The position numbers and the translations under genes were made by a program. A stretch of 64,000 bases of DNA from an uncultured delta proteobacterium. GTDB lineage: Bacteria > Desulfobacterota > Syntrophia > Syntrophales > UBA2185. Below the pieces are notes generated by a model. That model made no database searches. It saw only the letters and a list, made by a program, of their open reading frames with translations, and was not told where the DNA came from. This document shows positions 15,944 through 47,810 of this stretch, piece by piece. The stretch's first letter is position 1; the number at the start of each line of letters is the position of its first letter. The stretch lies in the NCBI GenBank assembly GCA_963695875.1, contig CAVOID010000011.1, positions 96,001 to 160,000 on the forward strand. Reading direction: 5' to 3'.

Positions 15944-15990
15944 ATAAATACCCCTCTTAAATAAATATTACCCTTCAGTAAAATAGCTTC

Positions 15991-16363: not shown

Positions 16364-16399
16364 GCTGCATATAATGTAGCCGTCGAAGATTATCATTGA
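16364..16399 (+). pseudogene. C-terminal remnant of a HigB toxin
   Basis: AAYNVAVEDYH* (HigB-type DYH end) directly before higA, preceded by an in-frame stop. Confidence 0.65.
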
Positions 16400-16410
16400 A
16401 AAGGATTATT

Positions 16411-29486: not shown

Positions 29487-31016
29487 TTGATTGTAAAGAC
29501 AATAAGCAGCACTGTGATCGGCATAGATTCGTATCCAGTTGATGTGGAAGTGGATATCTCACCGGGCCTTCCTCAATTTTCTATAGTAGGACTCCCTGAT
29601 ACCGCAGTCAAGGAAAGTAAAGACAGGATCAAGGCTGCGATAAAAAATTCCGGCTACAGATTCCCCAGGAACCACGTTACCGTAAATCTGGCGCCTGCCG
29701 ACATTAAAAAAGAAGGTACCGGCTTTGATCTTCCCATTGCGGTAAGTATTTTGACAGGAGAAGCCTGTATTGAGGCAGAAGACCTTCTTGATTACACATT
29801 CATCGGAGAATTGTCTTTGGATGGAAGCGTCAAGGGAGTTGATGGTGTCCTTTCAGCCGCCCTTCTGGCAAACGAAATGGGGAGAAAAGGTATCATTATG
29901 GCAAGAGAAAATGCCGCTGAAGCGGCCATGGTGGAGTTTATCAGTGTCATACCTGTCGATACCCTTTCCGATGTAGTCGAATTTCTTAATGGCAGGAAGG
30001 CGATAGAGCCGTTAACGCTTGATGTAGCTGACATATTCGACAAATGTCTAAAATATCCTTTTGACTTCAGCGAAATTCGAGGACAGGAACATGCAAAAAG
30101 AGCCTTAGAAGTTGCCGCAGCCGGAGGCCATAATATTATCATGATCGGTCCTCCGGGTTCGGGGAAGACAATGCTTGCCCAGCGACTCTCGACTATACTT
30201 CCCGAAATGACTTTCACCGAAGCAATAGATGTTACGAAGATATTTTCCGTGGCCGGGCTGTTCAATAAAAGGGGCACCATTCTAGGGACAAGGCCGTTTC
30301 GGTCTCCTCACCATACGATTTCAGATGCCGGGCTTGTGGGAGGAGGTCACACCCCCAGACCGGGGGAAATCAGCCTTGCTCATCATGGGGTGTTGTTCCT
30401 CGATGAACTGCCGGAATTCAAGAGAAATGCCCTCGAGGCATTAAGACAACCTCTGGAGGATGGACATGTAACAATCACGAGGTCTTCCGTAACAGCCACT
30501 TATCCGTCAAGATTTATGCTCGTGGCGGCAATGAACCCCTGTCCATGCGGCTATTACAGCGACCAGACAAGGGTATGTCGATGTACACCGCAACAGATCC
30601 GACAGTACCAGGCAAGGATATCGGGGCCTCTTTTAGATCGAATAGATATTCACATCGAGGTCCCCTCTGTCAGGTATAAAGATCTCACGGGAAAGTCTTC
30701 CGGTGAATCCTCCGGTGCTATCAAGGAAAGAATAGAACGGGCAAGATTTATACAAAAAAAGAGGCTTGAGGGCCAGGACACGCAATTCAATGCCCGGATG
30801 TCCGACAAGCTGATTAAAGTGTTTTGTGACATCGATGAGGATTCTCAGAAGCTTATTGAGATGGCCATAGAAAAACTTGGGCTCTCAGCCCGGGCCTATA
30901 CCAAGATATTAAAAGTGGCCAGAACCATTGCTGATCTCGAAGAGGAAGATAAAATACTATCCAGCCATGTGGCCGAAGCCATTCAGTATAGAAACCTTGA
31001 TAGAAAGATGATTTGA
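29487..31016 (+). CDS. comM: ComM/YifB Mg-chelatase-like AAA+ helicase
   Basis: [59 protein letters not shown]. Confidence 0.95.
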   Translation: MIVKTISSTVIGIDSYPVDVEVDISPGLPQFSIVGLPDTAVKESKDRIKAAIKNSGYRFPRNHVTVNLAPADIKKEGTGFDLPIAVSILTGEACIEAEDLLDYTFIGELSLDGSVKGVDGVLSAALLANEMGRKGIIMARENAAEAAMVEFISVIPVDTLSDVVEFLNGRKAIEPLTLDVADIFDKCLKYPFDFSEIRGQEHAKRALEVAAAGGHNIIMIGPPGSGKTMLAQRLSTILPEMTFTEAIDVTKIFSVAGLFNKRGTILGTRPFRSPHHTISDAGLVGGGHTPRPGEISLAHHGVLFLDELPEFKRNALEALRQPLEDGHVTITRSSVTATYPSRFMLVAAMNPCPCGYYSDQTRVCRCTPQQIRQYQARISGPLLDRIDIHIEVPSVRYKDLTGKSSGESSGAIKERIERARFIQKKRLEGQDTQFNARMSDKLIKVFCDIDEDSQKLIEMAIEKLGLSARAYTKILKVARTIADLEEEDKILSSHVAEAIQYRNLDRKMI

Positions 31017-31060
31017 TATAAAAGAGGTGCGTCATATCATGATTGCAAATTCGATAATCT
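30904..31060 (+). repeat. comM 3'-end repeat, copy 1 (the end of the intact gene plus 44 bp downstream)
   Basis: 157 bp; 153/157 identical to 36642-36798. Confidence 0.95.
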
Positions 31061-31743
31061 AATTAAAACTAAACAGTTTTAAAGAAATAATTCTCTGATA
31101 CTATGACAAACATAGCATGACGTGTTCGGCATAGACAAAGCCGGGGGATTTTGAGTTTTATCCGATCCAAAATTCATGATAAATAGGAATAGCTTTCCCT
31201 ATTTATCAGTCTTTAATTTCAATGAAAGGATGACGCCTCTGCCGCTGAAGTCCCCGTATAGCGGCGTGAAATCTATATCATGGGTATCTTCACCAATTCG
31301 GTAATCTTTAACATATTGAGCCTCTTTATTTTCATACTTTCGTCAACAATTTTTGTTAAGCTGCCCTTGAAATAGTCAGAAAATTCATAGCCGATGGTAA
31401 TATTCTTGCTTCTGAGCCATTGTTTTCGCTAATTCTGCCATGGTTTCACTCTCCATTATCGTATCCTTAAATGTCTTCAAGTTTGTCTGTGAATTTTATT
31501 TTCAACCAGATCTTCAGAATATCCCGATTGTCGTTTTATCCTCGGACTTCTTAGAGGAGGAAAAGCATATTTATCAGTTCACCATGAAAAATGTGGTCTC
31601 TAAGCCGCGTAAATACTGATAAGTGCTCTTTGAAAAGTTCTATTTGTCGGGAGGAATAACTAAATCAAAAGTTGACTTCTATATATGGAACATATAAGAA
31701 AATACCAATTGTATCTTCCATCCCCTGAACAGGAGGTCGCCCT

Positions 31744-33741
31744 ATGGGAAAGAACCTTAAGAGACTAAATCCGGGTGCGGAGACAAAGCCGACACATGCC
31801 CTTGAGGAGAAATTTCGTTTTCTGGCGGCAATTGTCCAGTCATCTGAAGACGCCGTCATCGGCAAAGATCTCAAAGGCACCATCACAAGCTGGAACCCGG
31901 CTGCGGAAAGAATGTTCGGGTACAGCGAGAGGGAAGCGCTCGGCAGACCCATCTCTATCCTCGGACCACCAGACCGCGTCGACGAGTTCAAAGAGATTAT
32001 CGAAAAAGTTAAACAAGGGATAAAGGTAGAACGATACGACACTTTGCGGAGAAGGAAAGACGGGACACTGATTGATGTTGCAGTTACTGTGTCTCCGGTA
32101 ATGAGTGAAGAAGGAAAGTTGATAGGCCTTTCGGTAATCGACCGTGACATCACATTGCAGAAGAAAGCCGACCGATATGCCCGCAGCCTGGCAGCCATCG
32201 TCCAGTCGTCTGAAGACGCCGTCATCAGCGAAGCTCTCGACGGGACCATCACAAGCTGGAACCCGGCTGCGAAAAAAATGTTCGGGTACAGTGAGAAGGA
32301 AGCGCTGGGCAAACCCATGTCCATTATCGGTACGCCGGACCGTATCGATGAGTTCAAAGAGATTATCGAAAGGGTCAAGCGGGGGGTAACAGTCGAACGC
32401 TATGAAACCGAGCGTAAACGGAAAGACGGCTCGCTGGTTGATGTTTCGGTCACTGTGTCTCCGGTGAGAGATGAGGAAGGAAAGCTGATAGGGCTTTCGG
32501 CAATCGACAGGGATATCACCGCCCAGAAACAAGCCTCCCAGTACGCCCGCAGCCTCATTGAGGCTTCTCTTGACCCGCTGGTAACCATCAGCCCGGACGG
32601 CAAGGTCACAGACGTTAACGAAGCCACCGTCAAAGTAACCGGCGTCCCGCGGGAGAAACTCATCGGGACCGACTTCTCCAGTTATTTCACAGAGCCTGAC
32701 AAAGCAGCCGACGGCTATCAACTGGTTTTTTCCGAAGGAACGGTTACGGACTATCCTCTTACCATCCGTCACTATGATGGAAAGCTCACAGACGTTTTGT
32801 ACAACGCATCCGTGTACAAAGACGTAGCAGGCAACGTCCTCGGCGTTTTCGCCGCCGCCCGTGATGTGACGGCGCAAAAGCAGGCCTCTCAGTATGCCCG
32901 CAGTCTGATTGAAGCTTCTCTCGACCCCCTGGTCACCATCAGCCCCGACGGCAAGATTACCGACGTCAATGAAGCCACCATCAAAGTCACCGGCATCTCC
33001 CGTGAGAGACTCATCGGCACCGACTTCGCCGACTATTTTACCGAACCCGAGAAGGCGCGGGAAGGCTACAAACAGGTGCTGGCCAAAGGGTACGTCACGG
33101 ACTACCCACTGACCATCCGTCATAATGATGGAAAGCTCACAGACGTTTTGTACAATGCCTCCGTGTACAAAGACGTAACCGGCAACGTCCTCGGCGTTTT
33201 TGCCGCCGCTCGTGATGTGACGGCACAGAAGCAAGCCTCCCAGTACGCACGCAGCCTCATCGAAGCGTCTCTCGACCCTCTGGTTACCATCAGCGCCGAC
33301 GGTAAGATTACCGACGTCAACGAAGCCACCATCAAAGTCACCGGCATCTCCCGAGAGAAGCTCATCGGCACCGACTTCGCCAATTACTTTACCGAACCCG
33401 AGAAGGCACGGGAAGGCTACAAACAGGTCCTGGCCAAGAGCTATGTCACGGACTATCCCCTGACCATCCGCCACAGGGATGGACATCTTACGGAGGTTCT
33501 GTATAACGCTTCCGTGTATAAAGACGTAGCCGGCGACGTCCTCGGTGTTTTCGCCGCCGCCCGCGATATCACCGGCCAGAGAAAGGCTGAAGCGCAGGTG
33601 GCTGAGCAAAGAACGAAGGAGCTGGAAAGACTGGCGGAACTGGAAAGATTCCAGAAATTGACAGTCGGACGGGAGCTGAAGATGATAGAGCTTAAAAAGG
33701 AAATCGAGGAATTAAAAAGAAGGCTCGGTGAAGCCTCATGA
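31744..33741 (+). CDS. Multi-PAS sensor protein (5 PAS/PAC domains) without an output domain
   Basis: Two 122-aa repeats (SSEDAVI) and three 117-aa repeats (YARSLIEASLDPLVTIS); C-terminal coil VGRELKMIELKKEI. Confidence 0.9.
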   Translation: MGKNLKRLNPGAETKPTHALEEKFRFLAAIVQSSEDAVIGKDLKGTITSWNPAAERMFGYSEREALGRPISILGPPDRVDEFKEIIEKVKQGIKVERYDTLRRRKDGTLIDVAVTVSPVMSEEGKLIGLSVIDRDITLQKKADRYARSLAAIVQSSEDAVISEALDGTITSWNPAAKKMFGYSEKEALGKPMSIIGTPDRIDEFKEIIERVKRGVTVERYETERKRKDGSLVDVSVTVSPVRDEEGKLIGLSAIDRDITAQKQASQYARSLIEASLDPLVTISPDGKVTDVNEATVKVTGVPREKLIGTDFSSYFTEPDKAADGYQLVFSEGTVTDYPLTIRHYDGKLTDVLYNASVYKDVAGNVLGVFAAARDVTAQKQASQYARSLIEASLDPLVTISPDGKITDVNEATIKVTGISRERLIGTDFADYFTEPEKAREGYKQVLAKGYVTDYPLTIRHNDGKLTDVLYNASVYKDVTGNVLGVFAAARDVTAQKQASQYARSLIEASLDPLVTISADGKITDVNEATIKVTGISREKLIGTDFANYFTEPEKAREGYKQVLAKSYVTDYPLTIRHRDGHLTEVLYNASVYKDVAGDVLGVFAAARDITGQRKAEAQVAEQRTKELERLAELERFQKLTVGRELKMIELKKEIEELKRRLGEAS

Positions 33742-33758
33742 CTTGGAAGTAGAAGAAG

Positions 33759-34735
33759 ATGGAAAAGATATCAGATGAAAAGATCGAATCCTTGAGAGAA
33801 TTCCGGTTAGCCACCCTCAATATCCTGGAAGATTTCAACACGGAGAAAAGTCATTTTGAAATGACACAGAAAGCCACCTTCAATATCCTCGAGGACTTCA
33901 ACGCAGACAGGCTCCGAATGAATGATACCCAGCGGGCCGTTCTTAATATCCTGGAGGATTTGAACGAGTCCAACGAAGAGCTGAAAAAGGCGCACGATGT
34001 CCTTGAAGAACGCGTCAGGGAACGGACCGCCGAGCTGGCACGGTCCAATGCCGAGCTGGAACAATTCGCCTACATAGCCTCTCACGACCTCCAGGAGCCT
34101 CTGCGAATGATCTCAAGCTACGTCCAGCTCCTGGCAAAGAGGTATAAGGGGAAGCTGGAACAGGATGCCGATGACTTTATCGGATATGCTACAGATGGGG
34201 CTCTGAGAATGCAGAGACTGATTAATGATTTGCTTGCCTATTCACGTGTCGGCACCCGCGGGAAGAGCTTTGGAGAAGTGAATCTCGATACGGTCTTAGC
34301 TCAGGCCTTGGAGAATCTGCAACTGGTTATCAAAGAAAAGCACGCCGTCATAACCCACGCCCCCTTGCCAATGGCATATGGAGACAGTGGTCAGCTGACA
34401 CAGGTTTTCCAGAACCTGATTGATAACGCCATCAAATTCCGTAGTGATGAAGCCGCCCAGGAGTCCACGTTTCAGCCAGAATTGAGGGAGGTGAATGTAT
34501 TTGTTCAGTACAGGATAATGGCATAGGCATTGCCCCGGAATATGTCAACAGGCTTTTCCTGTTGTTCCAGAGGCTGCATACCAGTAAGGAGTATCCGGGT
34601 ACAGGTCTAGGTTTGGCAATCTGCAAAAGAATCATGGAGCGGCACGGAGGCAAGATATGGGTTGAATCAAGACCGGGCAAAGGCTCAACCTTTTATTTCA
34701 GAATACCTACTACAGCAAAGGAGTTATTACCATGG
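33759..34735 (+). CDS. Histidine kinase with N-terminal LNILED repeats (indel near 34455; 3' end approximate)
   Basis: [15 protein letters not shown]-box, [28 protein letters not shown]. Confidence 0.88.
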
Positions 34736-35176
34736 ATGAATACCCGGGTAAGAGTAATCGACATCTTACTTGTTGAGGATAATCCGGGCGATGTACGTCT
34801 GGCGCAGGAGGCCCTTAAAGAAAGCAAGGTAAGGAACCGGTTGTTTGTTGTTGCAGATGGAGTTGAAGCTATGGCGTTCCTCCGGCAACAGGGCATATAT
34901 GCCGATAAGCCCCGCCCTGATTTAATCCTGCTTGACCTTAATTTGCCGCGTAAAAGCGGACGCGAGGTACTCGCGGAAATCAAGAATGATGAAAACCTGA
35001 AGCGAATCCCGGTGGTGATACTGACCGTCTCAAAGGCTGAAGAGGATATTGTGAAGTGCTATAACTATCACGCCAACTGCTATATAACTAAACCTCTGGA
35101 TTTCAATCAGTTCATGGAAGTGACAAAGGCAATCGAGGAATTCTGGCTGACCATTGTCAAACTCCCACCAGGATAG
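34736..35176 (+). CDS. Single-domain response regulator (Rcp1/CheY-like)
   Basis: [37 protein letters not shown]. Confidence 0.9.
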
Positions 35177-35183
35177 GCACGTA

Positions 35184-36638
35184 ATGAGAATCCTGCTGAT
35201 TGAAGATAATCCTGGTGACATCCGGCTTGTTCAGGAAATATTGAAAGAAGCCCCGGGCGATTTCACTCTTAATGTTGCAGAAAGGCTCGGCAAAGGCTTA
35301 GAGTTTTTGCTGTCTAACAATATAGATGTGGTATTGCTGGACATGAACTTGCCTGACAGCCGCGGATTGGAAACACTTACCAAAATGCGGACCAGGTTCC
35401 AGCATCTGCCGGTTGTGATAATGACATCCATTGTTGATGAGTCACTCGCTGTTAAAGCGGTACATCTCGGGGCTCAGGACTACCTGGTAAAGGGAGAGAC
35501 AGATGTCAGGTTATTGTGGCGAAGTCTTGTGTATGCCGTTGAGCGCAAGCTGGTCGAAAAGGCGATGTTACGCGCAAAGCAGGAATGGGAGCGGACCTTT
35601 GATGCCGTGCCGGATCTCGTTGCCATCCTGGACGACCAGTACCGTATCCTGCGTGTTAACAGGGCTATGGCCGAGCGTCTGGGACTGCACCCGGATGAGT
35701 GCATCGGAAAGATCTGCTATACCCAGGTGCATGGACTGGACTGCCCGCCGTCTTTTTGCCCACACGCCCTCGCCCTGGCCGACGGCCGGGAACATCTTGT
35801 CGAAGTGTACGAAGAAGGCCTGGGCGGTCATTTCCTGGTCAGCGCCACGCCTCTTACAGACGAGCAGGGACGGCTGATCGGTTCCGTTCACATTGCCCGC
35901 GACATCACCGAACGCAAAAAAGCCGAAGACGCCCTGAAGGAGCATACTGCCGCGCTGGAGGTTGCCAATAAGGATTTGGAGAGCTTCAGCTATTCCGTTT
36001 CCCATGACCTACGCGCACCCCTTCGCGCCATTGACGGGTACGCACGCATGATTCTCAAAAAGCAGGGCGATAAATTTGATGAAGATACAACACGTAAATT
36101 TAATGACATAAGGTTTAACATACAGATGATGGGTCGGCTCATCGATGATCTCCTTGCTTTCTCTCGACTGGGCCGAAAGCAAATAGCCATGTCACGAGTG
36201 GACATGGAGGAACTCATCAGGGATGTATGGAAGGAACAGAGGAGCATCAACCCTGACAGGAATATGCTGCTTACAGTCAACGGCATGCCTTTCGGTTATG
36301 GAGACAAGCCGCTCATCAAACAAGTGTATTACAATCTTCTGGCAAATTCGGCCAAATTCAGTAAATTTCGGGATCCCGCCCATATTGAAGCTGGCGGTTA
36401 TACCGACGCAAATGAGGATGTGTATTATGTAAAAGACAACGGTGTCGGTTTCGATATGGCATACTATGATAAACTGTTTGGCGTTTTTCAGCGTCTTCAT
36501 AACCCCGATGAGTTCGAGGGAACCGGCGTCGGCTTGGCAACTGTCCAGCGCATCATACACAGGCATGGCGGGCGGGTGTGGGCGGAAGGAAAAGTAAATG
36601 AGGGAGCCACATTCTATTTCACGCTACCACATAGCTGA
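35184..36638 (+). CDS. Hybrid receiver-PAS-histidine kinase
   Basis: ILLIEDNPGD receiver, EWERTFDAVPD PAS, SYSVSHDLRAPLR H-box, GTGVGLA. Confidence 0.92.
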   Translation: MRILLIEDNPGDIRLVQEILKEAPGDFTLNVAERLGKGLEFLLSNNIDVVLLDMNLPDSRGLETLTKMRTRFQHLPVVIMTSIVDESLAVKAVHLGAQDYLVKGETDVRLLWRSLVYAVERKLVEKAMLRAKQEWERTFDAVPDLVAILDDQYRILRVNRAMAERLGLHPDECIGKICYTQVHGLDCPPSFCPHALALADGREHLVEVYEEGLGGHFLVSATPLTDEQGRLIGSVHIARDITERKKAEDALKEHTAALEVANKDLESFSYSVSHDLRAPLRAIDGYARMILKKQGDKFDEDTTRKFNDIRFNIQMMGRLIDDLLAFSRLGRKQIAMSRVDMEELIRDVWKEQRSINPDRNMLLTVNGMPFGYGDKPLIKQVYYNLLANSAKFSKFRDPAHIEAGGYTDANEDVYYVKDNGVGFDMAYYDKLFGVFQRLHNPDEFEGTGVGLATVQRIIHRHGGRVWAEGKVNEGATFYFTLPHS

Positions 36639-36641
36639 GAT

Positions 36642-36798
36642 AGATATTAAAAGTGGCCAGAACCATTGCAGATCTCGAAGAGGAAGATAAGATACTATCC
36701 AGCCATGTGGCCGAAGCCATTCAGTACAGAAACCTTGATAGAAAGATGATTTGATATAAAAGAGGTGCGCCATATCATGATTGCAAATTCGATAATCT
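36642..36798 (+). repeat. comM 3'-end repeat, copy 2
   Basis: Starts 3 bp after the kinase stop codon; coding differences from copy 1 are synonymous (GCT/GCA, AAA/AAG, TAT/TAC). Confidence 0.95.
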
Positions 36799-36897
36799 CC
36801 TTATTTATGAACCGCAGCACTTAGTCATTGCTTTCTGAATGGTTCGCATCTGCTATTTAACGTTTTATTTCGTCATCTGTTTATCCAGTTGATACAA

Positions 36898-37884
36898 CTA
36901 TTTTACTGCAGCGCGGTTGCATGCTCTACAGGATGGCCTACCTTTAGACGGTAGGTCATGTCTATTAATAATAGGGATGGGGGTTTCTTTTTTGCACAAG
37001 ATATATAGCTCGTCATCTGTAACTTTTGCAATGTAATGGGTGTGCCCGAACATCTGATAAATATATCTATAAGGTTCTGATAAATCAATTATATGAAACA
37101 TAGCTTTGGCAACTATACCTAAAATAATGGTCTGCTGTAATTTAAGAGATTTTTCAATCTTTTCGAGACGGTTATATAACGTATTTTCCAATGATCTTGC
37201 TCTATGTCGTTTTTTCCCTGATTTATTCATTTCTAAATCTAATCTTCTTTTGCGCAGTTCATATTTCTTCTGAAACATCTCATATTTCTTATTCGACTGC
37301 TCCTTGCGTAGCTCCTGCCATTTGCGGGAAATTTCCAGCCTTTTATTAATCACCTCTTTACGAAACTCCCACCTCTTTTTTTTCTCCACAAACATCTCAT
37401 ATTTTTTATTCAGCTGATCTTGGCGTAGCTCTCGCCATTTATGAGAATTTTCAAGCTTTTTGTCACCTAATTCTTTACGAAGTTCCCCATTCTTTTGCTT
37501 TTCCAAGAGAAATTCTTTTAAAAAATAAATCGCAATTTGTTTATAAAAATCCCTCGCCACAGTTGTGTCTGATTCATTGTTATGCTCGAATTCTATCGGG
37601 ACTTTATACCTGTCTAATAGATTTTCACCATGTTCGTCAAATTGGCTGATTTCCTTCTTCTTATGGAAGTATTCTGTTATTTTTTTATTCTTGGCCTTTC
37701 TTATAGATTGATGTAACTGATGCATGTCGTCTGGATCAGTTTCAAGGAGATGAAGCCATACATCTTGAAAAGCATCACTATTTACAGGACAATGCTCACT
37801 TATTATTCTTGATATCTCTTCTACCTTCATAGTTCCTCCATCATCAGCCATATGATCCGGATAGGCAGATTTTGTTTTGATCAC
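36898..37884 (-). CDS. Lys/Glu-rich hypothetical protein with an internal repeat
   Basis: 328-aa ORF; ENSHKWRELRQDQLNKKYEMF / EISRKWQELRKEQSNKKYEMF. Confidence 0.65.
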   Translation of the reverse strand: MIKTKSAYPDHMADDGGTMKVEEISRIISEHCPVNSDAFQDVWLHLLETDPDDMHQLHQSIRKAKNKKITEYFHKKKEISQFDEHGENLLDRYKVPIEFEHNNESDTTVARDFYKQIAIYFLKEFLLEKQKNGELRKELGDKKLENSHKWRELRQDQLNKKYEMFVEKKKRWEFRKEVINKRLEISRKWQELRKEQSNKKYEMFQKKYELRKRRLDLEMNKSGKKRHRARSLENTLYNRLEKIEKSLKLQQTIILGIVAKAMFHIIDLSEPYRYIYQMFGHTHYIAKVTDDELYILCKKETPIPIINRHDLPSKGRPSCRACNRAAVK

Positions 37885-38069
37885 ATAGATTGAACTATAA
37901 GATGGTATCTCGAAAAAGATAAATCAAAATTTTATATCAAAAGCCATGACAAGATTGCCATGCTAGCTGATAATATGAACCCAGTATGTCGAATAATTGT
38001 CGACATACTATGCTGAATTATGCTATAATAGTTCAAACAAGATGATCGAAAAAGTCAAAGGCGGCGGAA

Positions 38070-38723
38070 ATGTTTGAAGAACTACGGAACAAGATAACAA
38101 GTGAAGAGTTTGACTATCAAGCCCTTCTGAACTGCCTTCGGGAATATGACCGACCACGTGATAAGATCACGGATTTGCTGAAGCAGGGTGCCATTATACG
38201 TATAAAGAAGGGTATCTATGTTTTTGGAGAGAGATATAGACGACGACCCTTTTCCAGAGAGGTTTTGGCAAACATGATCTACGGACCTTCTTACATATCC
38301 CTCGATTATGCCTTGCATTACTATGGCATGATTCCGGAACGCGTTGAGGCTGTAACATCGGTCACCTGTAGCCGGGGCAGGCGCTTTTCCACCCCCGTCG
38401 GTCTTTTCATGTACCGTGGTATTTCCATGAATGCCTATCAGATCGGCATTGATCAAGTGGTACTCGATAGGGGGCGCACTTTCTTAATTGCAGTCCCGGA
38501 AAAGGCTCTGTCCGACAAGATCCATGATGACCGGGGAACGAGTGTTCGAACCCAGACGGACATGAGGGCATATCTGCTGGACAACTTGCGGATTGATCCT
38601 GAAAGGCTGGAAAAGCTAAACACCGACATGCTCTCTCTGATCGCCGACCGTTACCGGTCCCGGAAGATACGGCTGCTAAGCGATTTGCTTCGTAAGCTGG
38701 GTGGGAGGAAGAACAATGAATGA
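38070..38723 (+). CDS. AbiEi-like type IV antitoxin
   Basis: IIRIKKGIYV, ANMIYGPSYISLDYALHYYGMIPE, AVPEKALSD. Confidence 0.88.
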   Translation: MFEELRNKITSEEFDYQALLNCLREYDRPRDKITDLLKQGAIIRIKKGIYVFGERYRRRPFSREVLANMIYGPSYISLDYALHYYGMIPERVEAVTSVTCSRGRRFSTPVGLFMYRGISMNAYQIGIDQVVLDRGRTFLIAVPEKALSDKIHDDRGTSVRTQTDMRAYLLDNLRIDPERLEKLNTDMLSLIADRYRSRKIRLLSDLLRKLGGRKNNE

Positions 38724-39582
38724 AGTAATTGCCCGCATGCTCGACCGGTACGAGAGTAGAAGTGTGGAGGACTATGTGAGAGCCCTTCGGGAGATACTGC
38801 AGGAGATTGCACTGCTCGGCCTCTGGCGGAGCAAATTTTTTGAGAAGGCTGCCTTTTACGGGGGCACAGCTCTCAGGATTCTTTACGGGATTGACCGTTA
38901 TTCGGAAGACCTCGATTTCTCGCTGCTCAAGCCAATGCCTGATTTCGATATTTCGCGATATATCAGTGCCCTGGAGCGTGAGGTCCGGTCGTTTGGGTTC
39001 GAGGTGAGTGTGACGGTAAGAGAGAAGAATGCAGAAAGTCCAGTACAGTCGGCTTTTCTGAAAGCTGACACCCTGAAGCACCTGTTAGTCATAGAAACAG
39101 CAGAAGACATTGCCAGGCAGATCCCCCGCGGACAGGTCATGAAAATTAGAATCGAGGTCGATACTGACCCGCCAATGGGGTTTGACACTGAAAACAAGTT
39201 TCTCCTTCAGCCGATCCCCTTCTCGGTCAGAACATTTGTCCTTTCTGACCTATTCGCCGGCAAAATGCACGCCGTTCTGTGCAGGCAATGGAAGAGTCGG
39301 GTTAAGGGCCGTGATTGGTACGACCTCGTCTGGTATGCCTCGCACCATCCGCAACTACATCTCGACCACCTCGAACAGAGGATGATCCAGAGTAGACACG
39401 CGAAGGAAGGGGACCGCCTGACCAAGGAGAAATTCTTCTTACTGACATCAAACGCAATTGATAAACTGGATATAAATCAGGTCAAGAAGGAAGTGGAACC
39501 TTTCGTGAAGAACCCTGATGCTCTGCAAGTTTGGTCGAAGGAGTTCTTCAGGGATGTTGTCAAAAGGATTGTGCTGGTCTGA
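38716..39582 (+). CDS. AbiEii/AbiGii nucleotidyltransferase toxin
   Basis: AFYGGTALRILYGIDRYSEDLDF, GKMHAVL, KGRDWYD; overlaps the antitoxin stop. Confidence 0.92.
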   Translation: MNEVIARMLDRYESRSVEDYVRALREILQEIALLGLWRSKFFEKAAFYGGTALRILYGIDRYSEDLDFSLLKPMPDFDISRYISALEREVRSFGFEVSVTVREKNAESPVQSAFLKADTLKHLLVIETAEDIARQIPRGQVMKIRIEVDTDPPMGFDTENKFLLQPIPFSVRTFVLSDLFAGKMHAVLCRQWKSRVKGRDWYDLVWYASHHPQLHLDHLEQRMIQSRHAKEGDRLTKEKFFLLTSNAIDKLDINQVKKEVEPFVKNPDALQVWSKEFFRDVVKRIVLV

Positions 39583-40085
39583 AGGATGTTCTGATCGACA
39601 TTTGTTCCGAACATGCGAATATTTCCTGAACGAAACAAAAACAGCAAAGATAAGATAACCAATTTATCAAATACGAAGGGTAATGTCCGACCATCTGACC
39701 AGATCATTTATTACAGGTTCAAACATGCAAGGCTGAACTGTTTATTTTTCCGTTCAAGAAAAAAGTGCATGTCTTCCTGTTATCAATGACCCAATGGATT
39801 TCTCAATCATACAACACTTCAAGCGGTAATCTGTTGTTGATGTTCCATCGACACACGAGACCGTTCTTCATATACTCTTGCCGCAAGAAGTAATATCTTA
39901 AGGCTGAATATCATCCCTTGTTATCAGTTCTTACCTACCATTCCCCTACTTAACAATCCCTATTCTTTTACATCATCAAATGAGGTAGTGGGATTAGAAA
40001 ATAGTCAAGGAGGACTTTAATTACCCGAGTTCTTCAAGGCGTAGGGATAAACTATGAACACTTCATTCAGAGAAAGGAGATCATC

Positions 40086-40787
40086 ATGGCTGAAATACCA
40101 GGTTTGAAAGTAACGAACGTCGTTCTCGTACACGGTGGCTTCGTGGACGGCTCTGGTTGGGAAAGCGTCTATAAGATCCTGACGAAGGGCGGCTACTCGG
40201 TCAGCGTCGTTCAGAATCCGACGATATCTCTGGCCGGCGATGTCGCTGCAACCAAGCGTATTATTGCCGCGCAGAATGGCCCAGTGGTTCTCGTCGGCCA
40301 CTCCTATGGCGGAGTAGTGATCACGGAAGCCGGCAACGATCCAAAGGTGGCGGCGCTCGTCTATATCACCGCCTTTGCCCCCGACAGGGGCGAGTCGGTG
40401 TCCACTCTTATCAAGAATCCACCGCCAGGCGCGCCTGTGCCTCCGATACTGCCGCCGCAGGACGGATATCTATTACTCGACAAAGCGAAGTTCCCCGCCT
40501 CATTCGCGGGTGACGTGGACAATGAAAGGGCCGCGTTCATGGCAGACTCCCAAGTCCCATGGGGCGTGGACGCACTCAGCGGCACGATCAGCGAGCCGGC
40601 TTGGAAGACCAAGCCGAGCTGGTACCTGGTTGCCACAGACGATAAGATGATCCCACCGGCGGCTCAGCGCTTTATGTCCAAGCGCGCTGGTTCAACTGTT
40701 GTCGAGGTCGCGGGCAGTCACGCGATCTACGTGTCGCAGCCGAATGCCGTGGCCGCGCTCATCGAAAAGGCCGCTATAGGGAAGTGA
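40086..40787 (+). CDS. Alpha/beta hydrolase
   Basis: VLVHGGFVDGSGW, GHSYGG nucleophile, DKMIP, GSHA. Confidence 0.92.
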   Translation: MAEIPGLKVTNVVLVHGGFVDGSGWESVYKILTKGGYSVSVVQNPTISLAGDVAATKRIIAAQNGPVVLVGHSYGGVVITEAGNDPKVAALVYITAFAPDRGESVSTLIKNPPPGAPVPPILPPQDGYLLLDKAKFPASFAGDVDNERAAFMADSQVPWGVDALSGTISEPAWKTKPSWYLVATDDKMIPPAAQRFMSKRAGSTVVEVAGSHAIYVSQPNAVAALIEKAAIGK

Positions 40788-40998
40788 AAGCTGTGGCGAA
40801 CTGAGCCTGATGAACACGCATATAAGCCGTCTGCAAAGAGGACCGGCAAAATACGTTGAGGAATCAGGAAGAGGATGTGTCAGTAAAAAAGATTCCCAAC
40901 CAAATCAAAAGGCAGGGTCAGAATGGCACTGCCTTTCTTATTGAGCATTTCAAATCGTAATCGTCGGTATAATCTCATCACACAAATTATTGATAAGT

Positions 40999-41091
40999 AG
41001 ATACTGTCCAGCCATGTGGCCGAAGCCATTCAGTACAGGAACCTTGATAGAAAGATGATTTGATGAAAAAGAAGTATGTCATTTCATGATT
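40999..41091 (+). repeat. comM 3'-end repeat, copy 3 (shorter)
   Basis: Encodes [20 protein letters not shown] with synonymous changes, plus a related downstream flank. Confidence 0.92.
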
Positions 41092-41293
41092 ATTCTATCT
41101 ATTCTGATGAGATTACCGCGCACCCGCTGATTCCCCACGCTCCGCTCGGGACTTCGGCTCACCGCGATGGCGGATGATTTTCAGCTACTCTTTCCTTATC
41201 GCTGGATTTAGGTAATATATTAATCGATAATTGTCGGCTTTAGCAGCTGAAAAGGACTGCTAACTCGTTCAAAATACCCTTCCTGATTAATCC

Positions 41294-41322
41294 TTGACAT
41301 CAGCTCCAGAGAAGTTTATATT
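41294..41322 (+). promoter_or_regulatory. Sigma70 promoter of the DEAD-box helicase gene
   Basis: TTGACA-17 nt-TATATT. Confidence 0.7.
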
Positions 41323-41504
41323 ACGTTAACTGGTTTTGGTTCATATGTCCTCAGAGCCTGTTAAAGGCTGCTGGGGATTTTTTTGATGAAAAAAAGATTT
41401 ACTTAAAGTGTATGGCCGATTCCTGTCGGAGACAGGAGGAATCAGAAATTAAATATCCGCCCCAAAGTTGTACTGGGGCGAATACATAGGAAAAAGGAAT
41501 AACA

Positions 41505-42851
41505 ATGAATTTTAAGTCGTTTAATCTACACCCCAACATCGAATCAGGCATCAGGGACCTCGGTTATACAGCGCCCACGCCGATTCAAATACAAGCTATA
41601 CCACCCATTCTTCAGAACCGGGATGTCATGGGACAGGCACAGACCGGAACGGGAAAAACCGCTGCCTTCGTTCTTCCCATCCTGCAACGCCTGATGGACG
41701 GGCCGCGGAAGCGTGTCCGGGCGCTAATCATGGCGCCGACGAGAGAACTGGTGGAGCAGACGCATGAAGCCATCGGTCAACTGGGCCGCTATACGAAACT
41801 GAAGAGCGTCACAATCTATGGAGGCGTGAACCAGAATCCGCAGATCAGCAAGATCCGCAGTGGAGCGGAGATTGTTGTGGCCTGCCCCGGACGTCTGATC
41901 GATCTTATGGATAAGGGCGTGATCGATTTAAGGCGCATTGAAGTCCTTGTCCTGGACGAAGCAGACCGCATGTTCGACATGGGCTTTCTGCCGGATATCC
42001 GGAATATCCTGAAGCGCCTGCCCGTTCAGCGGCAGACGCTCCTTTTTTCGGCCACTATGCCCGATGATGTCCGAGACCTGGCAGAGAGCACCCTGCGCAA
42101 TCCCGTCATCGTACAGGTCGGTGATGCGGTCCCGGTATCCACGGTCTCCCATGCCATCTATCCGGTTGATCCGCACCTCAAGACATCTCTTTTGATGAAG
42201 ATTCTGGAATGCACGGACATGGCGTCGGTGCTCGTCTTTACGCGCACCAAGGACCGCGCGACCCGCCTGGCGAAGCAGATGAAAAGATCCGGGTTTCTTG
42301 TGACCTCGCTGCAGGGCGATCTGCCCCAGAATAAACGACAGGAGGCGCTGGACGGTTTTCGCAGCGGCAAATACCAGGTCCTCGTGGCCACCGACATTGC
42401 CGCCCGCGGCATCGATGTTTCCAAAATATCACACGTGATCAATTATGACATGCCCGACACGGTCGATGCCTACACGCACCGCATCGGACGCACTGGCAGG
42501 GCCGCCAGAACCGGGGATGCGTTCACCTTTGTGACGCGCCCGGACAGGGCTTTTGTGTGGAGCATCGAAAATGTTCTTGGTGAAAAGCTGGAAAGGCGGA
42601 TATTGGATAATTTCAATTACGCGATACCAGCGCCGGAAGCCGGTAAGGGATCCGACCGCTCACAGCACTCCAGGAAGCGGTCGAGCTTGACGAAAGTCCC
42701 GGCAAATTCTCCGGCACGACATGCCCGTTCTTCTTCGCCGGTTTCGCGGCCGGCTTCAGGCGCGGCGAGAGGACGGAAGGATCTTTCTCAGTTCCCGTTT
42801 CTCGTTGGTTCACCCCAATTGAAATCGCGCCGATCCCACAGCATACGTTGA
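41505..42851 (+). CDS. DEAD-box RNA helicase (RhlE-like)
   Basis: AQTGTGKT, PTRELV, LDEADRM, SAT, ARGID, HRIGRTGR. Confidence 0.96.
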   Translation: MNFKSFNLHPNIESGIRDLGYTAPTPIQIQAIPPILQNRDVMGQAQTGTGKTAAFVLPILQRLMDGPRKRVRALIMAPTRELVEQTHEAIGQLGRYTKLKSVTIYGGVNQNPQISKIRSGAEIVVACPGRLIDLMDKGVIDLRRIEVLVLDEADRMFDMGFLPDIRNILKRLPVQRQTLLFSATMPDDVRDLAESTLRNPVIVQVGDAVPVSTVSHAIYPVDPHLKTSLLMKILECTDMASVLVFTRTKDRATRLAKQMKRSGFLVTSLQGDLPQNKRQEALDGFRSGKYQVLVATDIAARGIDVSKISHVINYDMPDTVDAYTHRIGRTGRAARTGDAFTFVTRPDRAFVWSIENVLGEKLERRILDNFNYAIPAPEAGKGSDRSQHSRKRSSLTKVPANSPARHARSSSPVSRPASGAARGRKDLSQFPFLVGSPQLKSRRSHSIR

Positions 42852-42937
42852 TCGTACTCGCTTTTCAGCGGACTCCCAACGGTCGATCGTCATTGGGTTG
42901 ATCGCTTTCATGAAATATGGTGAGGCAGATACATCAT

Positions 42938-44021
42938 CTAAACACGGGAATAGGTAACGCTGTCTTTTTCAAACTCTTCGATGATTTCGTCAGTCAGGGA
43001 CGGACGGATTTTTGGCATGATCTCAAAAATAGTTTCCGTAGACACCCAATAATCCCGCTTAGTGGCAAGTTCCTGTTCAAAGGCCAACTGCGCGACCTGT
43101 TGGAAGAGATATTCCATATCGGCCGGAGTAAATCGGGACGTCATCTTTATAATACGGTCAAGATCGATCTCGCCTGTATGAAGCTTGGATAGGTAGTGTC
43201 TCAGTATCGTTTTTCTCTCATCCTCATTCAAACCGCCCACCGGAATGATGCAATCAAATCTTCCCGGGCGAAGCAGCGCGGTATCCAGTTGCCTGATGTA
43301 ATTAGTAGCGCAAATAAGGAGTATGTTGTTACCCTGATTTTTAAGAAGCGGGACCTGCTTGAGAAATTCATTTGTAATAGACTTGTCAATGCGGCTCGCC
43401 TCGTCCCGACTGCCCGCGATCTCTTCAAACTCATCGATAAAGATGACGGCTTCCTCCAGATTTCGTGCCTTTTCCATTATCATGCGCAGATTAGCCCCCA
43501 CCCTTTCGGTTCCGTCAACCATCAGCATGCTCGGAGCAATTTCAATGAACCACCAGGAAAGGACTCCTGCTATTGCTCTGGCAAAATGAGTTTTACCTGT
43601 ACCGGGAGGTCCAAAGAAAATGATGGTCTTGGGAGGAACAACACCATGCTTTTTCGAAAGATCCCGCTCTGTCAGGGGAAGTATTATTTTCCTTTGAACT
43701 AACTGCTTTGGAGGCTGAGAATCGGAGATGGTATCCCATATTTCTTTTCTGCTGGTCTGAGCCCCCATCTCATTCAGGATGTCCCTCCGTTTATAGGCCA
43801 GGTATTCCTCATTGGCTTGCTCTATATTTTCGAGGAAATCGATGCATGCGACCCGCAAGACCTACATCCCGACCCAGTTTTTCAGACATGAGCCATTTAT
43901 GCTGCAAAATTCTCGGCCATAGGTCAGCGGCAGCATCAGGATCAAATTTTGTGCCGCTTATCTCAAATATTTTACTCGCGCACGACTCGGGTGACAGTTT
44001 CTCTGTTAAGTCTTCGTTCAT
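42938..44021 (-). CDS. AAA+ ATPase with a DUF4032-like N-terminus (indel near 43855)
   Basis: ILQHKWLMSEKLGRDVG; GPPGTGKT, IFIDEFE, LDTALLRPGRFD. Confidence 0.85.
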
Positions 44022-44231
44022 GATTCGCCTTCCCTCAAGGACCTGATATCTTTGCCGGATTAATATTGTGAATTTTCCAACTTTTTCCAGTCACTTGTTT
44101 TTTTGATGGTGCAAGTATAGGGCAAAATGATCCTGTGTCAAGGAGAAGGTACCACAAAAGTTCTGCTTCCTCGATGGACTCTACTCTTTCAAGTGTAGAA
44201 AATAATTATTGAAATAATTAAAGAATAATCC

Positions 44232-44260
44232 TTGACTTCCGGTAAAGGGCATCATATATT
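44232..44260 (+). promoter_or_regulatory. Sigma70 promoter of the cold-shock gene (long 5' UTR)
   Basis: TTGACT-17 nt-TATATT. Confidence 0.7.
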
Positions 44261-44399
44261 AGCAACAAGATATAAGTTTGGATATAACATTTTGAAGTGC
44301 AAAGATGGCCACCAAGCTTTTCAAGTCTCGGTGGCCTTTTTCTTTCTGTCATAGTGGCAATCCGACTTAAGAAAATTTTGAGAAAGGAGGATGAAAGCG

Positions 44400-44600
44400 A
44401 TGTCAGAAGGTAAAGTAAAATGGTTTAATGAACGTAAAGGCTTCGGATTCATTGAAAAGGATGACGGTGGTGATGTATTTGTTCATCACAGTGCCATTCA
44501 GGCTGAAGGTTTTAAGACGTTAAATGAAGGCCAGCGTGTCAGTTTTGATGTTACGCAGGGTGCAAAAGGCCCGGCAGCGGAAAACGTGAAACCCTTATAA
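44400..44600 (+). CDS. Cold-shock protein (Csp family)
   Basis: [35 protein letters not shown]. Confidence 0.97.
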
Positions 44601-44620
44601 GTTCATGATCGGAAAGGAAG

Positions 44621-44664
44621 AGGCGCTCCTCGTATGGTTTACCATGTGTGGGAGCGCCTTTTTT
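44621..44664 (+). terminator. Intrinsic terminator after csp
   Basis: aggcgctcc...ggagcgcct followed by a T-run. Confidence 0.8.
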
Positions 44665-44709
44665 GTATAAAACTTTAGATGCTAATTTAATTAAGAGGCC
44701 TTGAAAATA

Positions 44710-45075
44710 ATGAATGCACGCTGGGTGCTTGATACTCTCTGGCCGGAACTCCCGCAAGTTGATTGTACAATCGTAGCACGGTGGTGGCCCTGGGACTATT
44801 ACTGTGTATCGACAATACGGGTATGGCAAGATAAGTTAGATCCGATATACAAAAGTATAAAAATAAATTCTCTCCACCCGCAGCAATATGTAACACATAT
44901 CTATAAGTGTGATAAAAACGGCAGGAGCGATGTGAACCATTTTTATTATATGAAAGAATATCCTGACTCAAAACTGGCAAGAAGAGGCCACAAAGAAGTG
45001 GTAGATCTACTGGAAAAAGGCATGCTTAAGTTAATAAATCGAGTTCGGCCAGGCAATAAACAGTTAACCAGCTAA
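44710..45075 (+). CDS. Hypothetical protein
   Basis: ~120-aa ORF with no recognisable motif. Confidence 0.5.
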   Translation: MNARWVLDTLWPELPQVDCTIVARWWPWDYYCVSTIRVWQDKLDPIYKSIKINSLHPQQYVTHIYKCDKNGRSDVNHFYYMKEYPDSKLARRGHKEVVDLLEKGMLKLINRVRPGNKQLTS

Positions 45076-45082
45076 TTCTCGC

Positions 45083-45300
45083 TTACAACTCTCCATAATT
45101 CTTGTGTCGATCCCTCCCCATCAATTCTCCCAACGCATGAAAGCTCAATCCCTTCATCCTCTTAAAACAGGAAACAGCTAAATCCCTTTTTCGAAGTTTG
45201 GGATCCATTCTCCGTTTACGGATCTGCTCGCCAATATTTTGGAGATTCGGAATATCCATTTTGTTGATCATACACACGAGGTACGGTAAGGCTTAGGAAA
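45083..45300 (-). pseudogene. Internally deleted XRE-type HTH gene remnant
   Basis: NIGEQIRKRRMD.KL...RDLA joined to KRMKGLSFHALGELMGRD; adjacent to comM copy 4. Confidence 0.5.
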
Positions 45301-45309
45301 AATTGGGAA

Positions 45310-45422
45310 AAGGTACTTAAAGTCGCCAGAACCATCGCGGATATCGAAGAAGAAGATAAATGCTCTCCAACCATGTGGCCGAGGCCATTCAGTACAGAAA
45401 TCTTGATAGAAAAATGATTTAG
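45310..45422 (+). repeat. comM 3'-end repeat, copy 4 (most diverged; probably the displaced native end)
   Basis: [36 protein letters not shown]; different downstream flank leading to ilvE. Confidence 0.9.
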
Positions 45423-45475
45423 TGATAAGGAACCGGTACCAATTGGATGTTTAATGCATAAAGGGAGATAAGCGT

Positions 45476-46555
45476 ATGGAAATCAGAATTGTTAAAGCTG
45501 AACCGACAAAAATGAAGCCAAAACCTGCCGATGAGTCAAAACTTGGATTCGGGAAAATATTCACTGACCATTTCTTTACCATGAAGTACCATGCGGATCG
45601 CGGCTGGTATGATGCCATGATAGAACCATACCGGCTTATATCGCTGGAACCCACCGCCATGTGTCTTCATTACGGACAGGAAATATTTGAAGGGCTGAAG
45701 GCGTACAGGGGGAAAGATGATCAAATCTACCTCTTCAGGCCTTATGAAAATATTAATCGTATGAACGCCTCGGCGGAAAGGCTTTGTATGCCCAAAGTCG
45801 ATCCGGAATTATTTATGGACGCCCTTGAAGAAACTCGTCCTTATTGAGAAGGATTGGATTCCCCGAACCCGAGGGGCATCTCTCTATATCAGGCCGACGA
45901 TGATTGCTACGGAAGCGGCCCTGGGTGTGCATGACTGCCAATGAATACCTTTTTTTCATTGTCGTGGGCCCAGTGGGTGTTTACTATCCCCAGGGCTTCA
46001 GCCCAACCAGTATGTATGTGACTGATGACTATGTCCGGGCTGTGCGCGGAGGTATAGGATACTGTAAAGCTGCCGGCAATTATGCGGCCAGTCTCCGGGC
46101 GAGCAAGCTGGCCATGGAAAAGGGATTTACACAGGTGCTTTGGTTGGATGCAGATCGAGAGAAAGTATATCGAAGAAGTGGGGACAAGCAATGTCTTTTT
46201 CCTCATCGGGGAAGAGCTGATTACACCGCCCCTCGGGGGAAGCATCCTCCCCGGGGTACCCGAGAATTCCGTAATTCAGATGGCCAGAAGCTGGAACATT
46301 CGCGTTTCGGAGAGACCCATATCTATCGACGAGATTATGGATTCATCTGCCAATGGGAGCCTGAAGGAGGCATTTGCCTCCGGAACGGCGGCAATCGTTT
46401 CCCCCATCGGACAGATTTCTTACAAGGGAAAGGCAATTATCATTAATAAGGAAGAAACAGGTACTCTTACAGAAAAATTATACAATGAAATACTGCAGAT
46501 ACAATACGGCGAAAAGGATGATCCGTTTGGCTGGAGAATGCCGGTATCGGACTAA
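45476..46555 (+). CDS. ilvE: Branched-chain amino acid aminotransferase (several indels)
   Basis: [51 protein letters not shown]. Confidence 0.93.
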
Positions 46556-46866
46556 GAAACTCTCAAGTTTGATGATATGCCTCTTGAAACATGTACTTGG
46601 AATTAAATCCACAGGCATGTGGAAAAGGCTGTTGATGAACATGTTGATAACAATCGTAAGTCTGTCAATTGCGACAATTTTATACCTAATTGCATATGAT
46701 TTAGGCAGCAAATAATATGAATAATTACAGTATGTTACGTAAGCATTCCTTTGATTTCTGCTACTTATTGAGTTCTCTTTAGGAAGATATAAACTTCTGG
46801 AAAAAAATGTGCCATTTTTTCACTTTTTTTACATTAAAAAATATTAAAATAGAGTATCGCGCAGCA

Positions 46867-47539: not shown

Positions 47540-47547
47540 GACCTTTA

Positions 47548-47692
47548 CAGGCTGTTGAAAACCGCCCATCTGCGGCGTTGCGCTGCGCCCTTAGCCATTC
47601 GACGTACGTCTATGTACGCCTCACGACTCAGGTCTTGCACGCCTTGCATCTGGACATTTTGACGCTGATGACAGTGTTTTTTTCAACGGCAC
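47548..47692. mobile_element. MITE, same family as 29285-29463
   Basis: caggctgttgaaaa ... ttttttcaacggc; internal tctgc.gcgttgcgc and tacgcctc shared with the other copy. Confidence 0.65.
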
Positions 47693-47810
47693 CAAACAAG
47701 GCCTCTCTCCGGAAACTTCTCAAAGTCTTTTATGCGAATTTGCTTAATTTGCGATAAGTAATCCAGTATGTTTCTCATGGATTATGATGCTCTGTTGTGG
47801 AGGGTAGCAA

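Follow-up and report, generated by a model that had tools for sequence, protein, structure and literature searches.

The comM 3′-End Array

A layered array of DNA blocks at the 3′ end of comM was analysed in an uncultured delta proteobacterium of the order Syntrophales (lineage UBA2185). The array lies in a window of 64,000 nucleotides (GenBank assembly GCA_963695875.1, contig CAVOID010000011.1, positions 96,001 to 160,000 of the forward strand), and all coordinates given below are those of this window, which is part of contig C11 of a metagenome-assembled genome (MAG) of 2.86 Mb in 16 contigs with a completeness of 82.6%. As revealed by repeat finding and alignment, the 3′ end of comM is present four times in direct orientation between comM and ilvE, and the four copies delimit three blocks. 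This four-copy, three-block layered array in the comM-ilvE hot spot is real, and it is tentatively read here as a stack of recombinase-less islands assembled by the host's own recombination.

The intact comM gene (29487-31016, plus strand) encodes a protein of 509 amino acids, in which the ChlI, Mg_chelatase and Mg_chelatase_C domains were recognized by profile search (E = 7.6e-47, 1.3e-98 and 1.2e-31, respectively); these are the three domains expected of the ComM/YifB family in one protein of about 500 residues. Copy 1 (30904-31016) is constituted by the last 113 nt of this gene, whose last 66 nt are of the "island type" and 98.5% identical to those of the relative G012. Copy 2 (36641-36754, or 36641-36809 with its conserved flank) begins at codon 472 (K472), 3 nt past the stop codon of the last kinase gene of block 1, and shares about 97% identity with copy 1 across 157 nt. 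Copy 3 (40998-41063, or 40998-41130 with its degenerate, insertion-bearing flank) comprises only the last 21 codons and the stop, starting from codon 488, and is 90% identical over 91 nt, while copy 4 (45310-45422) again starts from codon 472, ends with TAG and is 86% identical over 112 nt. All copies lie on the plus strand, and copies 2 and 4 begin within 1-2 nt of the same codon, K472. The in-frame translations of copies 1-3 are identical where they overlap, their nucleotide differences being synonymous. Copy 4 is one base short in an A-run relative to copy 1 and therefore out of frame, which may be a sequencing error, since the assembly contains many single-base indels. When copy 1 with its flank was used as a BLAST query, no further comM-end copy was found elsewhere in the 2.86-Mb MAG; with four matches in the whole genome, the comM end is not a dispersed repeat.

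In copies 1-3, a TGA stop is followed by a common non-coding flank (31017-31075, plus strand, behind the intact gene), which is clear for about 45-55 nt at copies 1 and 2 and degenerate, with insertions, at copy 3. Copy 4 is followed by a different flank, a spacer and ilvE. The same conserved flank was encountered at the comM ends of the filled sites in G002, G012, G009, G006 and G052 and in the metagenome contigs L047 and L048, and it is missing from empty sites. Two functions of the flank itself were considered and rejected. A known RNA was not recognized, as a scan of the window at the Rfam gathering scores gave only an nhaA-I riboswitch at 5510-5562. An outward promoter was dismissed because sigma-70-like sites are no commoner than in shuffled sequences and the first gene of block 2 points in the opposite direction; one sigma-70-like match (10 of 12 positions) extends across the stop and the flank.

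The quality of the assembly bears on how these details are to be read. Split genes in the window include ilvE, lolA, the debranching enzyme, glycogen synthase, a citrate-type transporter, one kinase, an integrase and an IS110 transposase, and frameshift-split regions include 45476-46555, 46965-47487, 47768-49809 and 52773-54200. Compared with the window, short-read contigs of other samples have single bases missing or added at split genes, for instance at 45827, 45935 and 46603, from which it follows that the assembly carries indel errors, as long-read assemblies do, and that the "pseudogenes" of the window are not to be taken at face value.

Cargo of the Three Blocks

Block 1 (31076-36640, plus strand) harbors signalling cargo, namely a PAS-repeat sensor (31744-33741), a hybrid histidine kinase that a frameshift divides into two pieces (33759-34526 and 34562-35176) and a response-regulator/PAS/histidine kinase (35154-36638), all encoded on the plus strand. 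Its nearest DNA among 339 genomes of the order is at most 77% identical and represents paralogues only. Within the sensor gene (31822-33513), long in-frame tandem repeats were noticed, two of 366 nt followed by three of 351 nt, which are 77-80% alike.

Block 2 (36810-40997) contains a hypothetical protein of 328 amino acids on the minus strand (36898-37884), with an internal tandem repeat of 117 nt (37264-37497), the genes abiEi (38070-38723) and abiEii (38701-39582), and an alpha/beta hydrolase gene (40086-40787). AbiEi and AbiEii were identified by domain search and PADLOC (1.7e-69 and 1.2e-109, respectively), and their overlapping genes would encode a predicted type IV toxin-antitoxin pair. 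The core of this block (37099-39772) displays 95.9% nucleotide identity to DNA lying directly behind comM in G052, a member of another family, and junction-specific bases past the flank are also common to the two; this likeness points to a recent transfer between families. In the peat metagenomes X3 and X4, the hydrolase region (39818-41019) reached, at 90% likeness or more, 10-100 times the contig depth of the adjoining DNA; the hydrolase gene or a close relative must therefore reside in far more abundant organisms, and block 2 must itself be composite.

Block 3 (41131-45082) carries genes for a DEAD-box RNA helicase (41505-42851), an AAA ATPase (42938-43858, minus strand), a cold-shock protein (Csp; 44391-44600) and an open reading frame (ORF) of 124 amino acids (44701-45075). 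Including its left flank and the helicase promoter region, the block is homologous to the island that stands directly behind comM in G012 and G009, which are relatives from another genus; the helicase and the ATPase share 90% and 95% amino acid identity, respectively, with their homologues in those islands. Block 3 is followed by the remnant of a helix-turn-helix (HTH) gene of the XRE family (45083-45316, minus strand), whose origin is discussed below.

In the ORFs of at least 70 amino acids between 31017 and 45310, no Pfam recombinase or transposase domain (PF00589, PF00239, PF07508 and transposases) was detected, and to this extent the blocks resemble cis-mobilizable elements (CIMEs), which are devoid of integration or transfer genes. 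An initial annotation of this DNA, made from the sequence alone, had described four direct repeats of the comM end, synonymous differences and a shared flank in copies 1-3, a different flank leading from copy 4 into ilvE, an intact ComM, and cargo of PAS/kinase signalling, AbiE with hydrolase, and DEAD helicase, AAA ATPase, Csp and HTH remnant in the absence of any recombinase. Repeat finding, alignment and domain searches bore out this description, with the qualification that the flank of copy 3 is degenerate. The starts at 30904 and 45310 were likewise confirmed, while those placed at 36642 and 40999 were found at 36641 and 40998; the common first codon of copies 2 and 4 also held, although the boundary of copy 4 proved to be of different origin.

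Occupancy of the comM-ilvE Site in Relatives

The DNA behind comM was compared in twelve genomes of the family and in G005 and G010. Nine sites are empty (G001, G003, G004, G005, G008, G010, G011, G016 and G017), with ilvE about 50-90 nt past comM, while those of five relatives are filled, as is that of the window, with cargo differing among them; different content between the same flanking genes is thus found, as in minimal mobile elements. The same-genus relative G002 bears an insert of 8.1 kb (AbiE, RtcB, Hsp20, Usp, Ser/Thr kinase, HTH) with a comM repeat of 456 nt, and G006 one of 10.5 kb with a repeat of 54 nt, which encodes a sigma-54 activator, an acyl-CoA dehydrogenase, an electron transfer flavoprotein, a major facilitator superfamily transporter, HpaB and a CoA-transferase. 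G007 holds a patatin fragment (1.2 kb, repeat 55 nt), G009 a DEAD helicase and DUF374 (repeat 29 nt), and G012 a DEAD helicase, DUF374, AAA ATPase, Csp and the 124-residue ORF, on a contig that stops before the right boundary. On the comM side of every filled site, a TGA stop (TAA in G007) is followed by the conserved flank, which matches only partly in G007. On the ilvE side, all filled sites but that of G012, whose contig stops short of the right-hand end, showed a native-type end and spacer.

The hot spot is general in the Syntrophales, spanning several families. The last 89 residues of ComM found a match in 320 of 339 genomes of the order and at least two matches in 19 genomes (that of the window included); this count is a lower bound, as the short remnants of G007 and G009 were missed, and some of the second matches are frameshifts or weak. 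In G052, four comM-end copies lie on one contig, where a HEPN/MNT cassette is placed between a fragment starting at codon 352 and a 66-nt remnant adjoining ilvE. A codon-350 fragment, 3.7 kb of DNA, a remnant and then ilvE succeed one another in G050. G292 contains a 19.4-kb sugar-metabolism island with a repeat of 94 nt, and G310 a 26-kb fatty-acid/CoA island together with a 1.2-kb AbiEii cassette on a separate contig.

None of the 14 islands or blocks in ten Syntrophales genomes gave a Pfam match to an integrase, resolvase or large serine recombinase, with crude ORF calling (minimum 60-100 amino acids) and E-value limits of 1e-3 to 1e-8. Their right-hand ends are uneven. The remnants measure about 29, 54, 55, 66, 94, 113 and 456 nt, the stop codons of the cargo stand 3-9 nt from them, which leaves no space for a common right arm, and no common right-end motif was found among the island ends compared. 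Only the left flank is conserved, rather than arms on both sides of uniform attachment repeats as in CIMEs. The short remnants of G052 and G050 and copy 3 of the window all begin at codon 488.

More radical changes at the locus were also seen. In G013, G014 and G020, comM is mostly deleted and only end fragments are left between moaC and ilvE, so that ComM, to judge from these genomes, seems dispensable in some members of the family. In G019, comM is broken near codon 222 by about 20 kb of DNA, which includes four consecutive IS110-family transposase genes and a PAS hybrid kinase of 1226 amino acids.

A Second Target within comM and the Origin of Copy 4

In Syntrophales, comM is struck at two places, namely at codon ~352 by serine-recombinase elements and at the 3′ end by islands. 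In G035 and G018, the gene is split at codon ~352, in an N-P / C-P-C-G stretch; its 5′ part borders on a large serine recombinase gene of about 500 codons and its 3′ part on an XRE-type HTH gene. The element of G035 also carries the gene for a type IV coupling protein as well as one that is ArdC-like. The resulting junction of the HTH gene with comM(352-509) recurs as a scar downstream of intact comM in G002, in front of ilvE in G050 (with intact comM on another contig) and twice, in inverted orientation, in G052. The two copies in G052 (about 16.0-16.9 kb of L064 and about 10.5-11.5 kb of L065) stand about 28 kb apart on one contig, which could mean that a large inversion took place or that the serine-recombinase scars flank an invertible segment.

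The window retains only the HTH-side scar of such an element, with no large serine recombinase at the junction, and no match to PF07508 was found in its MAG. The DNA from 45111 to 45316 is 88-91% identical to the HTH end, i.e., to the right end of the codon-~352 elements, and for the remnant at 45083-45316 the identity to that junction in G052, G050 and L047 is 88-90%. Relative to the HTH protein of G052, the ORF at 45083-45277 (minus strand) has a gap of 46 residues that removes the HTH itself. The window also lacks 376 nt present in G052, from just past the element end to comM codon ~472, and both edges of this deletion carry microhomology of 7-8 nt. The comparison thus showed copy 4 to be the native comM end in a displaced position, which an element with a serine recombinase left behind and a deletion at the microhomology subsequently shortened; its native character is further supported by markers in common with empty-site relatives, above all G005. 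The HTH remnant and copy 4 are the oldest scar of the stack. Codon-~352 scars of this kind can mimic the attachment repeats of 3′-end islands.

Layer Order and Probably Imported Core DNA

Block 3 stands directly behind comM in G012 and G009, and contigs of the peat metagenome run X3, in which window position 31049 or 31074 is followed immediately by 41259, have the comM flank running directly into block 3; these contigs may derive from G012- or G009-like organisms. Accordingly, it was after block 3 that blocks 1 and 2 were inserted on the side of comM, and copy 3 once formed the comM end of the block-3 island.

The right-hand border of the array is not typical of the genus. The tract from 45423 to 49225 (plus strand), which holds the spacer, the frameshift-split ilvE, lolA and the start of the glycogen-debranching gene, is nearest to G005, a member of another genus, the one to which the two relatives with block 3 behind comM belong. 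Over ilvE-lolA (45423-47537), the identity to G005 is 90.6%, versus 79-83% to the same-genus genomes G001, G002 and G004. Beginning at 50238, the highest identity is again to G001 and G002 (87%), and upstream of comM the nearest genome is the same-genus G001 (87.3%). The ilvE-lolA tract is read as a probable recombinant import of core DNA. Given this other-genus core flank and a comM end 98.5% like that of G012, block 3 appears to have arrived on a tract that included at least 3.8 kb of core genes, and such co-arrival is a signature of homologous recombination.

The comM gene itself is mosaic, its foreign 3′ part beginning at codon 352 in G002, at about codon 390-405 in G012 and G009 and at about codon 488-491 in the window. 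In G009, the foreign segment starts from about codon 390, yet the remnant measures only 29 nt, so that the start of the segment and the boundary of the remnant do not correspond. The switch of ancestry at about 49-50 kb behind ilvE-lolA and the mosaic comM are the traces of homologous recombination that would be sought in the flanks of a minimal mobile element.

Comparison with Known Systems

Tandem accretion of integrative elements and CIMEs has been described for ICESt1/CIME in Streptococcus (PMC5704250). In Dehalococcoides, islands at ssrA form tandem arrays with gene-end repeats of 20 bp and a CcrB-like integrase (DsiB, a serine recombinase), and some of them are deprived of an integration module and were read as cis-mobilizable (PMC3146451). 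The comM array shares with both systems the tandem islands behind a single-copy conserved gene, the 3′-end repeats, the lack of an integration module in some islands and the intact target. A fixed repeat length (20 bp at ssrA) and a cognate serine or tyrosine integrase in many islands are typical of those systems, whereas at comM there are no integrases in 14 islands, repeats of 29-456 nt, no common right arm, and core DNA that was transferred along. The Dehalococcoides ssrA islands are the closest described parallel.

Composite islands of the staphylococcal cassette chromosome (SCC) are stacks of cassettes at the 3′ end of rlmH (orfX), including ccr-less pseudo-SCC elements, and they depend on CcrAB/CcrC serine recombinases and short fixed integration-site repeats. 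The comM array is likewise a cassette stack at the 3′ end of a housekeeping gene, but neither Ccr-type recombinases nor short fixed repeats were found there. SCC composite islands are also mentioned in the report on Dehalococcoides (PMC3146451).

The minimal mobile elements of Neisseria are blocks between conserved genes that are exchanged through homologous recombination in these flanking genes (PMC3787668, citing Saunders and Snyder 2002). A variable, recombinase-free block between conserved genes is likewise present here, and the ilvE-lolA tract and the mosaic comM fit this model; minimal mobile elements replace each other, however, while the comM blocks accumulate and leave gene-end remnants with a conserved flank. 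For the codon-~352 elements, a counterpart is the Wolbachia prophage WO of type sr1WO, for which a large serine recombinase, integration into the Mg-chelatase gene and a characteristic XRE HTH gene have been described (PMC9203015). In both cases a ComM-family gene is split by a serine-recombinase element with an XRE-type HTH gene, the likeness holding at the level of the gene; unlike sr1WO, the window keeps only the decayed right junction.

Proposed Assembly of the Stack

It is tentatively proposed that the array is a stack of three recombinase-less islands, built mainly by host homologous recombination and by the decay of an old mobile element. Each layer would have been added next to comM, bringing a fresh comM end and pushing the former end with its flank downstream as a dead remnant. 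The engine would be homologous recombination of imported DNA by the host rather than an island-borne or integron-like integrase, with the comM body as the left arm and, as the right arm, either sequence on the side of ilvE or a previous comM end plus flank. A donor segment in the order comM, flank, cargo, remnant, flank would be homologous at both ends to any recipient comM end, so that it would be added and not swapped. New remnants would stem from occasional illegitimate joins, and selection for intact comM and ilvE would allow only joints inside the spare comM end to persist. In a recipient split by a serine-recombinase element, homology with an incoming intact comM would stop exactly at codon 352; repair would restore comM, drop the recombinase side and keep the HTH side, which would generate the codon-352 scars. 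This proposal is favoured on account of the variable occupancy, the lack of integrases in the 14 islands, the uneven remnants, the imported core tract, the mosaic breakpoints, the codon-352 scars and the presence of ComEC in the MAG.

Several observations weigh against it. The block-2 core is 95.9% identical in G052 although the comM of G052 is only about 70% identical at the DNA level, and homologous recombination proceeds poorly between arms so diverged. Conservation of the left flank extends across genera and to a second family, as would be expected of an attP arm. Copies 2 and 4 begin at one and the same codon, and so, in turn, do copy 3 of the window and the short remnants found in G052 and G050; this recurrence of boundaries at codons 472 and 488 hints at site specificity. 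DprA gave no match above the cut-off in the 82.6%-complete MAG. One of the domain scans, moreover, was made at E ≤ 1e-8, so that short recombinase fragments could have escaped.

Some of these observations lend weight to a possible but doubtful alternative, in which the blocks are integrase-less site-specific elements of the CIME, SCC or ssrA type, or satellites mobilised in trans by an unlinked recombinase. Integration would then take place in the last ~66-113 nt of comM, with the element carrying a replacement end and a P′ arm, to which the conserved flank would correspond. Each block is indeed bounded by direct repeats of the target end, four copies around three blocks, with comM kept intact; the left flank is found again in G052, in two metagenome contigs and in five genomes that represent three genera; at this same site, an almost identical block-2 core occurs in different families; and boundaries recur at codons 472 and 488. 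Comparable tandem arrays, some with islands without integration modules, are known from Dehalococcoides ssrA (PMC3146451), as is CIME accretion (PMC5704250). However, the recombinase that this alternative needs was not encountered in any of the 14 islands, and an autonomous element bearing the flank or the comM end was absent from the scans of genomes, metagenomes and viral contigs. The flank motif is confined to comM ends (four of 22 genomes of the family), the comM-end motif was found in three metagenome contigs (one of them G002-like) and, among genome contigs, only in four already-known relatives, and neither motif had a match in the viral contigs. No related autonomous element with a cognate integrase was thus seen at the same attachment site, the serine-recombinase elements being restricted to codon ~352. 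The MAG of the window, without a large serine recombinase domain, has one small resolvase and six places with PF00589, two of which, including a broken one, fall at 11.9-13.9 kb of the window; none of these candidates could be linked to the comM site. The uneven repeat lengths, a right-arm motif not common to the islands, the discrepancy between the foreign comM start (~codon 390) and the 29-nt remnant in G009, and the transfer of core DNA together with block 3 also speak against site-specific insertion.

A chimera in which three single-island strains were strung together via the comM end during metagenome assembly is unlikely. A graph assembler could be misled by a shared core of at least 60 nt, peat metagenomes also contain variants in which comM is followed directly by block 3, and among the 32 of about 1290 contig pieces listed, none bridges a block end, the repeat and the start of the next block; nor was an excision junction of the window's array found among the same listed pieces. 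The many single-base indels absent from short-read contigs of other runs suggest, however, a long-read assembly that would span repeats of 160 nt, and multi-copy arrays stand on single contigs in G052 (four copies) and G050. Moreover, the independent metagenome contig L047, which is 92% identical to the comM end of the window, has an internal junction of the same type, in the order HTH gene, comM(352-509), TGA and island flank. For these reasons the artefact is judged improbable.

Even less credence is given to an integron-like or Xer/dif platform, in which an integrase would act at attC-like hairpins or XerCD at a dif-like site. The single orientation of the array, the toxin-antitoxin genes in the cargo and the presence, 17 kb upstream, of two Xer/integron-like tyrosine recombinase genes (11911-13901, one broken) would be in keeping with it, but none of the genes adjoining comM, which encode MoaC, a membrane protein and a Fis-type HTH protein and are found in synteny in relatives, is a recombinase gene. 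The integron/attC version was rejected, as no intI lies beside comM and five repeat stretches, folded as single strands, did not surpass shuffled sequences (z-scores of -0.61 to +1.04). The Xer/dif version (integrative mobile elements exploiting Xer, IMEX) was also rejected, because in five closed genomes comM is located at 8-31% of the chromosome from dnaA, away from the terminus.

The "integron-like platform" of the initial annotation is not supported. Its picture of successive integration beside comM, with the native end displaced downstream, agrees with the position of block 3 in G012, G009 and the X3 contigs and with the markers of copy 4. Its further notion of three related units that share a common arm and integrated at one site does not: the boundaries vary from 29 to 456 nt without a right-end motif, copy 4 is a deletion scar, and the right-hand layer came with core genes, a signature of homologous recombination. 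Of the checks it had proposed, inspection of the comM-ilvE interval in relatives yielded the anticipated empty sites (nine) and filled sites of variable cargo (five besides the window), while the flank, used as a probe for integrase-bearing autonomous elements, led only to comM ends in the 22 family genomes.

Other Features of the Window

The nhaA-I riboswitch (RF03057, plus strand), scoring 42.9 bits and thus above the gathering score, is situated upstream of a CBS-domain gene and a split gene of the citrate-transporter family. A mobile-looking patch (11911-16728), bordered by the gene for a molybdopterin oxidoreductase and by a truncated GDPD gene, harbors the two tandem Xer/integron-like tyrosine recombinase genes, the first of which is broken (249 and 131 amino acids), a split IS110 transposase and an XRE HTH gene; no link between this patch and the comM array was found. 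Further downstream, a fragment of a MazF/PemK-like toxin (57327-57542) and a protein with a ParB N-terminal domain adjoining a fragment of a D12 adenine methyltransferase (59190-60492, minus strand) may represent another mobile or defence remnant.

Implications

Tandem accretion of islands is already known, and on the best reading what is new here is an integrase-free variant of it. It is conceivable, albeit rather doubtful, that the comM end and its flank act as a portable homology arm through which cargo is added by host recombination, or else as the landing pad of a trans-acting recombinase that is never island-borne. If the portable-arm version were true, cassettes would be stacked without an integrase at the very gene for the helicase that drives recombination in transformation. 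Members of the Syntrophales are syntrophic anaerobes of peat and sediments, and in this order signalling, toxin-antitoxin, RNA-helicase/cold-shock and whole metabolic gene sets are stacked at one site in the absence of an island-borne recombinase. Recombination with a reusable gene-end arm, if true, would offer a simple route to additive gene gain, and such stacking would be missed by island-finding tools that are keyed to integrases.

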